This document shows, in pieces, positions 5,041 through 62,788 of a stretch of 64,000 nt of DNA (positions within the stretch are counted from its first letter, which is position 1; the number at the start of each line of letters is the position of its first letter). The stretch lies in contig NC_043003.1 of NCBI RefSeq assembly GCF_006345805.1, positions 14,322,001 to 14,386,000 on the forward strand, given 5' to 3'. Below the pieces are notes generated by a model that saw nothing but the letters and a program-made list of their open reading frames with translations, had not been told where the DNA came from and searched no databases. The position numbers and the translations under genes are program-made. Source of the stretch: Octopus sinensis (Eukaryota).

Positions 5041-5482
5041 CTGCTGTTACTGATCATTCATTGTGGTTAGCTGCTTGTCATGCTATTAATTTTGAATGTC
5101 TTTCGTCCACTGACCATCCATTGCATTTGTTGTCAGCTTGGGTCAGCTATTATCTACCGTCTCTGTCAAAGTATCTAAGGAGTACCAAACTTACAGTGAT
5201 GAGTAGGCTCAGAGAGAAAGATGCGAAAAGATGAAATTGTTGGTAAAGCCAGTTCTAGGTGAAATCTTAATTGGACAAATTTTTTTGATTATGTGGGTAA
5301 TATTCTAGCGAAGAATGACATTGGATATAGTGATCAGGTTGCTAAATATTACCACTACAGATATGAAATTCAAATGTGAAATTACCAGTTTGCTGTCATG
5401 AACGAAACACACCATTTTCATGTGAATAAACCTAAGAATAGACCAATCAGCTGGAAATTATGCCATGAACATCATCTCAAAT

Positions 5483-27719: not shown

Positions 27720-28689
27720 TTAACCCATTCGATACCAACTTGGCTGAAACCAGCTCTGGCTCTGTAGTACAAATGTCTCGTTTTCATAAATTCTGAATTA
27801 AAATCTTCCATCAAGCCTTAGTCACAATTTATTTTCCTAAAACTAGCATAATGATTTTACTAAATTCTTTGTTATATTTAAAATTAATTGAAAGAAACAC
27901 AGAGCATCTCAACAGAAATATGGTAACAAAAGGATTAAAATATATAATAGAGAAACAATTCTTAACCCTTTCGATACCAGCCCAGCTGAAACCACCTCTG
28001 GCTCTGAGTACAAATGCCTTGTTTCCATAAGTTTTGAATTAAAATCTTCCACCAAGCCTTAGTCACAATTTATGTTCCTAACTCTAGCTTAGTGATAACT
28101 AAGTTATTTTACTAAATCCTTTGTTACATTTAAAATTAATTGAAAGAAACACAGAGCATCTCAACAGAAATATGGTAACAAAAGGATTAAAATATATAAT
28201 AGAGAAACAATTCTTAACCCTTTCGATACCAGCCCAGCTGAAACCACCTCTGGCTCTGAGTACAAATGCCTTGTTTCCATAAGTTTTGAATTAAAATCTT
28301 CCACCAAGCCTAGTCACAATTTATGTTCCTACTCTAGCTTAGTGATAACTAAGTTATTTTACTAATCCTTTGTTACATTTAATTAATTGAAAGAAACACA
28401 GAGCATCTCAACAGAAAATATGGAACAAAAGGATTAAAATATATAATAGAGAAACAATTCTTAACCCTTTCGATACCAGCCCAGCTGAAACCACCTCTGG
28501 CTCTGAGTACAAATGCCTTGTTTCCATAAGTTTTGAATTAAAATCTTCCACCAAGCCTTAGTCACAATTTATGTTCCTAACTCTAGCTTAGTGATAACTA
28601 AGTTATTTCACTAAATCCTTTGTTACATTTAAAATTAATTGAAAGAAACACAAAGCATCTAAGAATAAATTCGATAACAAAAGGGTTAA
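27720..28689. mobile_element. Tandem array of four piggyBac-like MITEs
   Basis: Each unit is TTAA-CCC(T/A)TTCGATACC...TAACAAAAGG(G/A)-TTAA; period about 250 bp. Confidence 0.8.
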
Positions 28690-31789: not shown

Positions 31790-32080
31790 GGAATAAGAAC
31801 ATAACAGACGACAATAAAAACATATGGACAGATAGATGATACAAAGATGGACAGGAAAAACCAGGATGGAATACTCGTGGCTTTCTTTCATCAGTCAAGC
31901 TTCCAATCATCATTACAGTTTCGGCCTGTTACACATGAGACTGTTCAAAATTGGTAGGCCCGAAAATTGGTAGGTCTCAAGTGTAACAGGCTGAAACTGT
32001 AATGATGATTGAAAGCTTGACTGATGAAAAAAAGCCACGAATGTTCCATCCTGGTTTATCCTGTCCCTCTTTGTATCATC
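31790..32080. mobile_element. Fold-back element with GAAAC-N23-CTGATGA motif
   Basis: Inverted arms at about 31835-31941 and 31974-32080. Confidence 0.65.
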
Positions 32081-32694
32081 AGAGGTAGCCAGTATGGAAT
32101 AAAATATGGGGACTGCTCTCTATTGTTGGAGGTGAAAAGACACATCCAGTTTGTGGAAAAGATGCACACAATTCCCACAAACACTTCATGATAGCTCTTA
32201 CCGACTTACAGCATAACCAGCCCAGAGGCAATGTCTCAGTACCAAGGGACAAAACTCTTAAACTAAATCCCCTACTTGGCTCGTTCCATCATCTTTTCAC
32301 AGTAACCACAAACTGGATGTGTCCTCTCACCTCCAACAATAGAGAGCAGTTGCCATATTTCATTCCATATTGGCTACCTCTGGTGAGCGTAGGGCTAAAT
32401 AATTGGATTGTTACCTAACATTCCATTGTAGCCCTTGTGCAAAACTGATTGGTAAGATCAGCCATGATGGATATATAATACTGTACACTTTGGATAATAT
32501 ACCTAATCTATTGACAGATATATAAGTGCATCTTTTTCCTGACTTAGGCCCATATATATATATATATTATATAGAGGGTACTATTATTCATAGGTACCGC
32601 ATGCTAGGAGGGACCTTTGCAGTCAAAACTACTAAAATAAACAAATTGTACCGAATGCAAAACTTCAAAGCAAGTCATTTAAAAACAGAATTTA

Positions 32695-32758
32695 GTTACA
32701 TATCACCTGTGATTTCGCAATCAATGCAGAATATGCATTCTATGCTCTTCAGTGCAAC
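32695..32758 (-). ncRNA. Type I hammerhead ribozyme (intact core)
   Basis: gttgcaCTGAAGA-GCA..TGC-GAAA-TCAC-ag-GTGA-TA-tgtaac: stems I, II and III all pair. Confidence 0.8.
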
Positions 32759-33402
32759 GAACTCAAGACATGTAAGAAAAAACACAAGATAGCATACCCG
32801 ACAGCCAACCGTAGAATTCGTTGTAGCATGTACGAATGTTTATCTTTACATATCTATGAAAATGGCGGGCTTATTTGCAATGCATTTCGGTAACAATTTG
32901 CGTATTCGGAACAAAAATTCAGTATTGAACTATTCCGGTGAAAAATATAAATTTAAAATAAAGGATAAAATCTTTATAAGAAATTATCAGTAGTTAGCGT
33001 GAAAAGTTTTGCATTCGGTAAAATTTGTTTATTTTAGTAGTTTTGACTGCAAAGGTCCCTCCTAGCGTGCGGTACCTATGAATAATAGTACCCTCTATAT
33101 AATATCAATAAATATTTTCAAAGTGGAAAATTACAGATTTTTTCTCTTACGAGATTTTTCACGCCAACTACTGATAATTTCTTATAAAGATTTTATCCTT
33201 AATTTTAAATTTATATTTTTCACCGGAATAGTTCAATACTGAATTTTTGTTCCGTATTGGCAAATTGTTACCGAAATGCATTGCGAATAAGCCTGCCATT
33301 TTCATAGATATGTAAAGATAAGCATTCGTACATGCTACAACGAATTCTACGGTTGGCTGTCGGGTATGCTATCTTGTGTTTTTTCTTACATGTCTTGAGT
33401 TC

Positions 33403-33466
33403 GTTGCACTGAAGAGTATAGAATGCCTATTCTGCATTGATTGCGAAATCACTGGTGATATGTAAC
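33403..33466 (+). ncRNA. Type I hammerhead ribozyme (intact core)
   Basis: gttgcaCTGAAGA..GAAATCACtgGTGATAtgtaac. Confidence 0.8.
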
Positions 33467-33904
33467 TAAATTCTGTTTTTAAATGACTTGCTTTGAAGTT
33501 TTGCATTCGGTACAATTTGTTTATTTTAGTAGTTTTGACTGCAAGAGTCCCTCCTAGCGTGCGGTACCTATGAATAATAGTACCCTCTATATAATATAAA
33601 TAAATATTTTCAAAGTGGAAAAATTTACAGATTTTTTCTCTTACGAGGTTTTTCACGCTAACTACTGATAATTTCTTATAAAGATTTTATCCTTAATTTT
33701 AAATTTATATATATATATATATATATACCATTATTATCATCGTTTAACATTCATTGTCCATGCTGGCATGGGTTGGACGGTTTGACCAAAGATGGCAAGC
33801 TGGAAGACTGTACCAGAATCTAGTCTGATTTGGCAGGGTCTCTATCGCTGGATACCCTTCCCAATGCCAACCACTGCAAGAGTGTAATGGGTGCTTTTAT
33901 GTAT

Positions 33905-34272: not shown

Positions 34273-34395
34273 GCGCGCGCACGAGAGAGAGAGAGAGAGA
34301 GATAAAACACAGATATATAAACATACATACATATATATTTGCATATACATGTATCTAGGTGTATATATATACATATATATATATATTTATATATA

Positions 34396-36243
34396 GTTAT
34401 CCGTAATAATGAAGGGTGAAATTAATTAATTTGGAATAATTATCAATTACACCAAGTAGTCTTCGGCATGTAAAAGCCTCATTCGAGGAAAATTTAAGTA
34501 ATACTAAGCAATAAAGGGTTTAGCAACGAATTGCCTTACCACATACTGAATTTAGAAATAGCAGTCAAAGAGTTATAGCTCTTCTTCTACTAAAAAGGGA
34601 GATCTCAGTAAAAACAGCAATTGAAGGCAGACACAAACAGGTAAGAGAGAATGAATTGACGGCAATCTATCATACAATTTTAAGTTATCTACGGACGCAC
34701 GTTTCGAAATCAAGTTTTTAGGAAAGCATAAGAATTAAATATTAAATAATTCTACCTTACCAAAACTTCTTTTCTCTTCAGCGGTAGAATACTATAATCA
34801 TAAATGATTATATATTGAATTTTGAGATACTAGAAGGCACCAACTCAACTCAGTATCAGAGCGAGCTAGAATCCGCAACTAGTATCACCAAATTCAATGT
34901 GTGAATGAAAAGATTGTGTCACCAGCCCCTTCCCACCCGTGTGTAGCCAAAACAAGATGCTGTGGTCATCTACTGAGATAAAATATGGTTATCCGTAATA
35001 ATGAAGGTGAAATTAATTAATTTGGAATAATTATCAATTACACCAAGTAGTCTTCGGCATGTAAATCCATTTTTTTCTGCAAAGCAAAATGTCTACAGCC
35101 TTTCTTTTCCATTTTTTATTACAGTTTTAGCTCACTTTTTTCCCTTTTGCCATCAGCTTTGACAAACGAAATGGAAACTGTGGAGGACAGCCAATCAAAA
35201 ATTTTGATGGTGACTCACATAATCAACACATGAACTAAAGCCTACTTTTTTTTTTTCCTTTTTTCCTTCTCGTTTTGTTTTAATTTTATCGCATATTGTG
35301 TATATCACAGGTAGTATTTGATTCTGTGCAGTATTTTAACCAAGATTGTGTCACCTTATTCGAGGAAAATTTAAGTAATACTAAGCAATAAAGGGTTTAG
35401 CAACGAATTGCCTTACCACATACCGAATTTAGAAATAGCAGTCAAAGAGTTATAGCTATTTCTTCTACTAAAAAGGGAGATCTCAGTAAAAACAGCAATT
35501 GGAAGGCAGACACAAACAGGTAAGAGAGAATGAATTGACGGCAATCTATCATACAATTTTAAGTTATCTACGGACGCACGTTTCGAAATCAAGTTTTTAG
35601 GAAAGCATAAGAATTAAATATTAAATAATTCTACCTTACCAAAACTTCTTTTCTCTTCAGCGTAGAATACTATAATCATAAATGATTATATATTGAATTT
35701 TGAGATACTAGAAGGCACCAACTCAACTCAGTATCAGAGCGAGCTAGAATAATAACCATATTTTATCTCAGTAGATGACCACAGCATCTTGTTTTGGCTA
35801 CACGCTGGTGGGAAGGGGCTGGTGACACAATCTTTTCATTCACACATTGAATTTGGTGATACTAGTTGCGGATTCTAGCTCGCTCTGATACTGAGTTGAT
35901 TTGGTGCCTTCTAGTATCTCAAAATTCAATATATAATCATTTATGATTATAGTATTCTACGCTGAAGAGAAAAGAAGTTTTGGTAAGGTAGAATTATTTA
36001 ATATTTAATTCTTATGCTTTCCTAAAAACTTGATTTCGAAACGTGCGTCCGTAGATAACTTAAAATTGCATGATATATTGCCGTCAATTCATTCTCTCTT
36101 ACCTGTTTGTGTCTGCCTTCCAATTGCTGTTTTTACTGAGATCTCCCTTTTTAGTAGAAGAAATAGCTATAACTCTTTGACTGCTATTTCTAAATTCGGT
36201 ATGTGGTAAGGCAATTCGTTGCTAAACCCTTTATTGCTTAGTA
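34396..36243. mobile_element. Hammerhead element cluster: 592-nt unit in tandem and fold-back arrangement
   Basis: Unit restarts at 34396 and 34988; inverted junction near 35750; hammerheads at 34689-34787 (-), 35568-35665 (-), 35957-36054 (+). Confidence 0.8.
35957..36054 (+). ncRNA. Type I hammerhead ribozyme with extended stem II
   Basis: ctacgCTGAAGA-GAAA..(~60 nt)..TTTC-GAAACGtgCGTC-cgtag. Confidence 0.8.
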
Positions 36244-36247
36244 TATT

Positions 36248-36279
<32 letters not shown>

Positions 36280-45374: not shown

Positions 45375-45580
45375 ACCGCGTGTGTATCGTTGACAAATTT
45401 TTTCCTCCGTTTTCCCTTCCTTGAATCATTCCTTTACCTATGTTTCTGACGAAGAGCTCCGCTCGAAACATTAAATTCCCCTTCTTTCTTTCCTTTCCTG
45501 AGCGTCCAATAACACTATACTTGTTCCACATCCTCACGTAGTTGTGTTTTCTCTTTGTGTTTTCATGCTTGGATTAACTA
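45375..45580 (+). mobile_element. Small hammerhead element in (TA)n
   Basis: gtttCTGACGAaGAGCtccGCTCGAAACATT at 45442-45476; relative at 53630-53838. Confidence 0.7.
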
Positions 45581-60026: not shown

Positions 60027-60491
60027 TACGTGGTCTGATCAATAAGTACCTGGGCTGTTGTCATAGCAACAAAGCTAAAGCACACAGAATAAAGCTGCTT
60101 GGCACAGATTGACCTTGAATTCTGCTGTGCATGCACACCACTACGTTTTAACATTCTAGCTCACCTCTGCTGTTTACAGCAGTGCTTGGAAGGAACATGT
60201 GTAGCATGTGATCGTCGCAAAGACTATGACAGAAAGCGGAGCAGAGAATCTGCATCAAATTTTGCCAAAAGCTTGGTGATACCTGTTCAGAGGCCTATGC
60301 AAAGTTTTCAAAAAGCTTTAATCATTCTCGATACAATCAAGGAGATTATTTACATTATTTACATTCAATGGATATTTGTCCTCATCTTGTTTGTTATTAA
60401 CACAACGTTTCGGCTGATGTACCCTCCAGCCTTCTTCAGGTGTCTTGGGGAAATTTCGAACCTGGGTTTTCATTCCTAAGGTATTTTTCAA

Positions 60492-62485: not shown

Positions 62486-62788
62486 CATGGGAGTTGTGGC
62501 ATGCTCCGGTAATCCTGCCACTCGGAGGCTTCGTAGGGTGGCCAGTTTGAGATTGAGAGTCCTGGTAGCCAGTCTTCTATTGTGATTGGGTGTCCGTGCT
62601 AAGCTCTGCATCGATATAGTGCTGGAAAGGGAGCTTATCAGGACCAAGTTGTCTAAGGAGGGTTGCTTCAGCCCAGGGCAGAAATGCAGCAAGCAAAAGA
62701 CTCTGTGTCAAGCAGTCGTGGGATCGCACTTGTGAATAGTTGTCGATTGGCAGTCTGTTTGATACAACTGAACACCAATCTAATTTTT
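62486..62788 (+). ncRNA. RN7SL: 7SL (SRP) RNA gene or pseudogene, full length
   Basis: Collinear with metazoan 7SL: GTGGC..GTAATCC..ACTCGGAGGCT, GGGTGTCCG..CTAAG, GCATCGATATAGTG, CTAAGGAGGG, CCCAGG-GCA-GAAA-TGC-AGCA, GTGGGATCGC..TGTGAATAG; about 296 nt then TTTTT. Confidence 0.88.

Follow-up and report, generated by a model that had tools for sequence, protein, structure and literature searches.

A dispersed hammerhead repeat of Octopus sinensis, probably a Penelope-mobilised non-LTR retrozyme, and one of its likely dead-end insertions

Metazoan non-LTR retrozymes, described from coral, the Mytilus mussel and the axolotl, are short, head-to-tail, non-coding units of low GC content that carry a type I hammerhead ribozyme and no LTR features, and Penelope elements occur in the same genomes; it has been proposed that their tandem cDNA is made from a circle (PMC7229834, Cervera and de la Pena 2020). 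Vertebrate non-LTR retrozymes range from 51 to 972 bp, include many monomer-type copies and also co-occur with Penelope (Li, Clavereau and Pollet 2026, bioRxiv 10.64898/2026.07.22.740005). The working rule given there for calling a copy 'active' is two consecutive units with a ribozyme, and in the one test cited from that preprint 8 of 9 predicted frog dimers showed no cleavage and 1 of 9 was cleaved. In the cited portions of both reports, the mobilising enzyme of animal retrozymes and the copying of circles are proposed only. Penelope-like elements of the Neptune clade and their non-autonomous forms leave insertions marked by 5' truncation, partial tandems, inverted 5' copies, tails and a bias towards microsatellites (Craig et al. 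2021, PMC8557442). Poseidon of the green anole was seen in vitro to start reverse transcription at two internal sites downstream of its hammerhead, and to cut and extend both strands of AT-rich targets (Frangieh et al. 2024, PMC11167929). We found no description of cephalopod retrozymes in the literature, where the supplements of the retrozyme papers may list such motifs.

The locus described here lies in a 64,000-nucleotide stretch of the Octopus sinensis genome (the window, to which coordinates refer). It has the type I hammerhead and the short non-coding head-to-tail unit of the metazoan retrozymes, together with their low GC (32% here), their lack of LTR features and the presence of Penelope in the genome. 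Its 494-nt unit exceeds the 170-400 nt given for metazoan retrozyme RNAs and falls inside the vertebrate range, and its many monomer-type copies recall the vertebrate elements. Unlike the metazoan retrozymes, which lie in arrays, the copies are mostly 0.3-1.5 units long with inverted arms, stem II of the ribozyme is long, and the locus is known from DNA alone. It also falls short of the vertebrate two-unit rule and shows no pLTR homology to the three Penelope families compared here. With the Neptune elements the family shares truncation, partial tandems, the inverted 5' copy, a tail and the microsatellite bias, and the candidate donor of the enzyme has an RT, a C-terminal GIY-YIG domain and a CX4CXXC linker; it differs from them in having no ORF and in its tail of 103 nt instead of 30-40 bp. 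The two apparent internal starts downstream of the hammerhead, the AT-rich target and the use of both strands are as in Poseidon. The Poseidon starts are not homologous to the target, whereas in the present family each of the two 3' ends falls in a TA-rich word that grades into the (TA)n target, and pairing of these ends with the target may help priming. The element resembles a non-LTR retrozyme of the non-autonomous, Penelope-mobilised kind in the way it works, and is best classed as one (PMC7229834; PMC7761336).

Repeat analysis of the locus gave direct repeats at spacings of 492 and 494 nt (a 2-nt indel) and an inverted repeat that is 95% complementary. The 494-nt unit at 33217-33710 was taken as the reference for numbering (u1 = 33217, u494 = 33710), and the element was mapped on it as two arms. 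The plus-strand arm, u280-494 followed by u1-494, covers 33004-33710 (707 nt, 1.43 units). It consists of a 5'-truncated partial unit at 33004-33216, which starts downstream of the ribozyme and so has none inside, and the single full 494-nt non-coding unit (33217-33710, 32% G+C), which on folding is more structured than its shuffles (z -3.0). The inverted arm on the minus strand, which reads as a second cDNA copy, runs through u434-494 and then u1-391, wrapping the unit junction, and occupies 32554-33005 (452 nt). The two arms meet head to head (5' to 5') with a 2-nt overlap at 33004-33005. At both outer ends the 3' end of an arm runs into a (TA) tract: the left one, at 32552-32567, merges with the u391 end of the inverted arm, and the right one lies at 33706-33727. 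The last 103 nt of the full unit (33608-33710) form an optional 3' 'tail' between the two fixed 3' ends of the family, u391 and u494, which would be the points where reverse transcription starts. The direct and inverted copies are 96% identical, and 12 of the 376 scored sites (3.2%) differ between inverted arm and unit.

A first-pass annotation, made from the sequence alone, had described 1.4 head-to-tail units of very high identity after an inverted arm of about 440 bp, inserted in (TA)n and without a credible ORF, and this anatomy is borne out, with an arm slightly longer than stated. The longest stop-to-stop frame inside the element is 105 aa, and two Penelope proteins compared with the whole 64-kb window gave no match; the RT and GIY-YIG endonuclease ORF of an autonomous Penelope-like element is absent from the locus. 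The unit is short, head-to-tail and low in G+C, with neither protein coding nor LTR in a search whose scope did not extend to PBS and PPT. Just upstream of the element we noted two short inverted-repeat (MITE-like) structures, at 31835-32080 and 32076-32386.

A two-strand scan of the whole 64-kb window found exactly two canonical type I hammerheads, with cores at 33409 (+) and 32752 (-). They are a single motif and its inverted duplicate, one per strand and with no tandem pair, and the unit itself encodes only one, not the ribozyme on each strand of the same unit that marks a viroid-like agent. Predicted cut sites follow from the hammerhead consensus. The plus-strand ribozyme (33403-33466) has an intact core at 33409-33415, a stem I of 6 bp, a long stem II and a stem III, and would cut after 33460 (u244); that of the inverted arm (32695-32758, minus strand) would cut between 32701 and 32700. 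The drawn stem III leaves a loop of only 2 nt and is near-palindromic around that 2-nt centre, and it may in truth be 4 bp with a tetraloop, or an intermolecular pairing between two molecules. Hammerhead cleavage as a dimer has been described (PMC7229834). The minus-strand ribozyme is the commonest family haplotype (39 of 159), while the plus-strand one has three private substitutions, at u201, u211 and u237, each found in only 2-3 family segments. The earlier wording of 'intact ribozymes on both strands' with 'all three stems paired' is correct for both cores and for the presence of three helices.

At its gathering threshold Rfam reported no hammerhead in the window, only an SRP RNA (a Metazoan SRP RNA gene or copy at 62488-62779, 134.9 bits). 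Single-sequence folding did not favour the hammerhead fold (z 0.28 and -0.52; pair probability of stems I and III at most 0.12), and this prediction would count against an active fold. The pattern of core plus stem III has 584 exact matches in the genome, as against 0 for the reversed control. Among 14 natural examples, both sides change in 6 of 6 stem I pairs and in 2 of 4 stem II pairs, 97% of stem cells are paired, the covariation score was reached by 0 of 500 shuffles, and slid controls drop to 0-2 pairs; since the pattern used to find the sister families already prescribed the core and stem III, this covariation speaks for stems I and II only. RNAalifold found the three-helix fold unprompted, along with a conserved long-range helix that encloses the hammerhead. 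The comparative evidence strongly suggests that the hammerhead is real, and the original naming of the element as of retrozyme type is supported. An apparent constraint on the core after insertion (0.9% vs 2.4%) was discarded because the sample had been picked by ribozyme queries.

Hammerhead-like cores with a stem II and no canonical stem I or III were also seen in the window, at 45446 and 53702 (+) and at 60439 and 29401 (-), and are possibly minimal or permuted ribozymes in other repeats. Elsewhere, L093, L097 and L099 carry other, unrelated type I hammerheads with a long stem II and a palindromic stem III; that of L099 sits in a 1.3-unit repeat of about 456 nt between (TA) tracts.

The unit belongs to a dispersed family. 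Two short words of the family have 268 and 391 exact matches in the genome, with 0 for the reversed controls; the 391 are those of a 24-mer, and the larger clan amounts to 584 hammerhead matches. Copies were collected by BLAST-type searches, in which the best 40 of 2074 and the best 40 of 1144 candidates were scored, and by a ribozyme-independent sample anchored on a word that lies downstream of the cut site; of its 391 places the first 100 were taken, and 8 were dropped (anchor in an upstream unit) to leave 92 segments. In this sample 53 segments end at u391, 35 at u494 and 4 elsewhere. Of 275 arms, which come from 163 loci with imperfect de-duplication, 138 end at u391, 107 at u494 and 30 elsewhere, and 210 of the 245 that end at u391 or u494 enter an A/T-only tract. 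The 5' ends are scattered over the unit, the cut site being read through in 57 of the 92 segments and the unit junction wrapped in 18. Arms longer than one unit number 55 of 275, the longest being 2.7 units, and 14 of 275 cover at least two ribozyme sites. An inverted arm is present in 30 of 53 distinct loci by hand count over L207-L266, a count that leaves out 30 loci obtained before these; it is the norm of the family, which would be a standing source of long hairpin RNA if read through.

These circularly permuted copies show the 5' truncation, the partial tandems, the inverted 5' copy, the two alternative 3' ends and the microsatellite target of elements mobilised by Penelope, with a tail longer than described; by analogy, the 103 nt against the 30-40 bp would count against a Penelope explanation. 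None of the 163 loci with arms has a copy that runs into an ORF in the sense direction. L137, considered as two pLTRs on account of ribozymes 2.5 kb apart, was rejected, being one copy split by an insertion. At u238-269 there are 27 5' ends in 2284 at-risk bases, as compared to 55 in 10815 upstream, about 2.3-fold denser, in bins picked after inspection of the data and in a region where stalling of the RT at helices would give the same excess. A sharp pile-up exactly at the cut site was not seen in this sample, where one end falls at u245. The excess hints weakly at cleavage of some templates.

The arms of one insertion resemble each other far more than they resemble other copies. At 50 polymorphic sites, inverted arms of one insertion were discordant in 58 of 1117 comparisons and tandem parts in 55 of 1134, against 43% between loci; for the younger subfamily the corresponding values were 48 of 1205 within insertions and 14% between loci. 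Rare alleles were common to inverted arms at 24 of 10096 sites and to tandem parts at 27 of 9269, compared to 56 of 532094 between loci, a sharing about 25-fold above that of unrelated copies; these counts omit eight composite or duplicated loci (L122, L123, L125, L136, L143, L162, L185 and L211). This sharing of rare alleles within an insertion makes it likely that a single RNA was the template of both arms, and the simplest reading of these sequences would be that one RNA is copied from both ends of the cut, more than once round. Gene conversion, fold-back copying after insertion or a homogeneous multimer could give the same allele sharing.

The first-pass annotation had presented this locus as young and as the best candidate for an active retrozyme, and neither description is supported. 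Its arm-unit divergence of 3.2% equals the within-insertion average of the family (3.3%), and its segments lie 2.1-2.6% from the family majority, where the family median is 3.5%; its private alleles are at u39, u42, u106, u201, u211 and u237. At a clock where a distance of 0.09 corresponds to 25 million years (PMC13282606, possibly for another species), 1.6% per arm would give about 4-5 million years. Two consecutive units with a ribozyme are not found here: there is one ribozyme per strand, the plus-strand partial unit has no u245-279, and a full unit between two cuts exists on neither strand. It follows that the locus is unable to release a full monomer. Five same-strand ribozyme pairs at unit spacing were found elsewhere, among the first 100 of the 584 matches. 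The expectation that read-through would give long dsRNA agrees with the folding of the predicted transcript into a long duplex of 457 long-range pairs. In this fold 62 of the 64 ribozyme bases pair with the arm, so that long dsRNA and ribozyme activity oppose each other here. Read-through at this locus is only hypothetical, because no host exon is evident among the open frames in the window, in a check of which a Pfam scan formed no part. The locus is probably a dead-end insertion rather than an active source; it is ordinary, and the family is of modest importance.

The genome carries intact RT and GIY-YIG frames with the CX4CXXC linker, which has been tied to Neptune elements (PMC8557442), and the candidate donor is likely Neptune-like, the clade being read from the linker motif only. 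Two Penelope families, A and B, end on (TA)n; family B measures about 3.75 kb, has the linker, and includes full-length copies that bear inverted arms and end on (TA)n. At L135:1258-2900 (G000:C2:153155294 onward) a retrozyme arm is joined 5' to 5' to the 3' part of a family B element, with both outer ends on TA-rich tracts, mirroring the self-inverted layout. After this head-to-head fusion, a Neptune-like Penelope is the likely donor of the enzyme. The 5' flank is unexplained in 63 arms, of which the chimera is a single one, and the two elements could lie side by side by chance. The unit bears no likeness to the UTRs of three Penelope families (best score 45 vs a shuffle maximum of 46), and the donor is therefore not linked by homology; no sequence shared with the pLTR of an autonomous partner was found in these three. 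A unit copy occurs in 0 of 30 GIY-YIG loci, in only one (L099) of 16 wider ones, where it is a separate neighbour, and in no family B locus apart from the chimera. No canonical hammerhead was found in families A and B by a scan that is blind to permuted forms. In three contigs a GIY-YIG fragment lies 3.9 kb away from a sister copy; these were set aside as duplicates of one region with no linked element. A very young Penelope family (L091-L094; 98-99% alike) ends on (TA)n and has an intact 781-aa RT/GIY-YIG frame and an upstream 479-aa frame without a Pfam match. It has no canonical hammerhead, and pieces of the L091 3' UTR (about 5075-5185) might form a permuted one.

Taken together, we consider it probable that the locus is one insertion of a dispersed non-coding non-LTR retrozyme, its arms copied from one RNA by a Penelope-type reverse transcriptase primed on both strands of a cut (TA)n tract, and that it is a dead-end copy. 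A two-ribozyme locus elsewhere would be transcribed and cleave itself to a monomer of about 494 nt, which would be ligated to a circle. A Neptune-like RT/GIY-YIG protein would cut both (TA)n strands and start cDNA at u391 or u494, in keeping with the two internal RT starts and the cutting of both strands reported for Poseidon in vitro (PMC11167929). The cDNA would extend backwards across the unit junction and past the ribozyme site, in some cases beyond a full round, to a variable stop, and two 5' ends would be joined head to head, as the pattern of the copies indicates. Here the cDNA begun at u494 would have reached 707 nt and the one begun at u391 452 nt, leaving an anatomy that would release no full monomer and in which the read-through hairpin would hide the ribozyme. 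The ribozyme cleavage and the circle steps are predictions of this scheme, and the wrap-around is explained by an uncut multimeric transcript as well as by a circle. With the same element and enzyme, the template could instead be a linear multimer, transcribed from a tandem source locus and cleaved in part or not at all, with no circle and with a ribozyme that only trims ends. We regard this as possible but doubtful. The Penelope element tested in PMC11167929 needed no ribozyme cleavage, unprocessed RNA being the main substrate, and the 5'-end excess at u238-269, at the cut site and immediately 3' of it, would be expected if some linear templates had been cut. The loci retrieved include no long array, however, the longest being 2.7 units (assembly collapse could hide arrays), and insertions of 1.4-2.7 units do occur, with rare alleles shared by the tandem parts of one insertion.

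It is unlikely that the unit is the pseudo-LTR of an autonomous Penelope and its copies 5'-truncated remnants. Frog retrozymes do resemble pLTRs (bioRxiv 10.64898/2026.07.22.740005), and a rare full-length parent may be missed among the best 40 candidates or first 100 places per search; but the copies wrap from u494 to u1 and not into an ORF, 0 of 163 loci extend in sense into coding sequence, and neither the 30 GIY-YIG loci nor the 16 wider ones match the unit, save for the separate neighbour in L099. An even smaller chance attaches to the locus itself as an active source of circular RNA. Its cores are both intact, its minus ribozyme is the commonest haplotype and it diverges by just 2.1-2.6% from the family majority, yet it has one ribozyme per strand, no full unit between cuts, a ribozyme buried in the read-through RNA and a typical age, whereas two-ribozyme tandems exist elsewhere and sister family Y is younger. 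Least probable of all is that the arm and the tandem arose through misassembly or through later duplication of local DNA: complex Penelope insertions do trouble assemblies (PMC8557442) and a few loci are exact duplicates of whole insertions, but the divergence of arm from unit is 3.2% and each has private changes, their 3' ends differ (u391 vs u494), and the same layout recurs at many loci. More speculatively, and at odds we would place clearly below even, the clan of 458-494-nt hammerhead RNAs could consist of free-standing RNA-circle parasites, recognised through their structure by a Neptune-like RT dimer, which would copy a single circle from the two ends of a double-strand break, with no sequence tie to any Penelope. 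If so, the insertion records, including the L135 chimera, would prove rolling-circle target-primed reverse transcription directly from genomic sequence, and would identify which enzyme to assay in vitro. Young retrozyme families, intact RT/GIY-YIG elements that share the (TA)n target and one chimera are all present in this genome, which makes the question testable in vitro.

Four runs guessed to be RNA contain short family contigs, none of which spans the unit and from which no strand, level or ends can be read; one run also yielded, as a loose end, a hammerhead variant for which the genome has 0 exact matches. Most differences in these contigs that look like editing were rejected as such: three sites aside, 8 of the 10 candidates for A>G and 3 of the 4 for T>C that were checked proved to be alleles common in the genome or changes of this copy's own. 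The remaining ones, u340 and u354 (A>G) and u353 (T>C), at 33556, 33570 and 33569, were seen for u340, u353 and u354 in contigs of 3, 3 and 2 of the four runs, which may be from other individuals or species, and in 1 of 271, 0 of 281 and 2 of 282 genomic segments. A U on the 5' side is the preferred neighbour of ADAR sites. The three changes are a weak hint that fits editing of both hairpin arms.

Sister family Y (L276, L280, L282 and L296-L298, e.g. G000:C9:55534261-55535000) has a unit of 458-459 nt with a short stem II and a fully changed stem I. It is younger, its arms differing at 1 of 426 and 1 of 331 sites, and includes two-ribozyme dimers; it is the better place to look for activity. 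L301-L330 show at least five further stem II types with the same stem III (584 exact matches), and their units seem to be pieced together from families X and Y, a hint of template switching.

Two other repeats were noted in the window. At 34390-36260 a second non-coding repeat, ending on (TA)n, has the same direct-plus-inverted layout, with copies 98-99% alike at a spacing of 877-879, and no canonical hammerhead was found in it. A 252-nt tandem repeat of 3.9 copies with 92% matches lies at 27720-28689.
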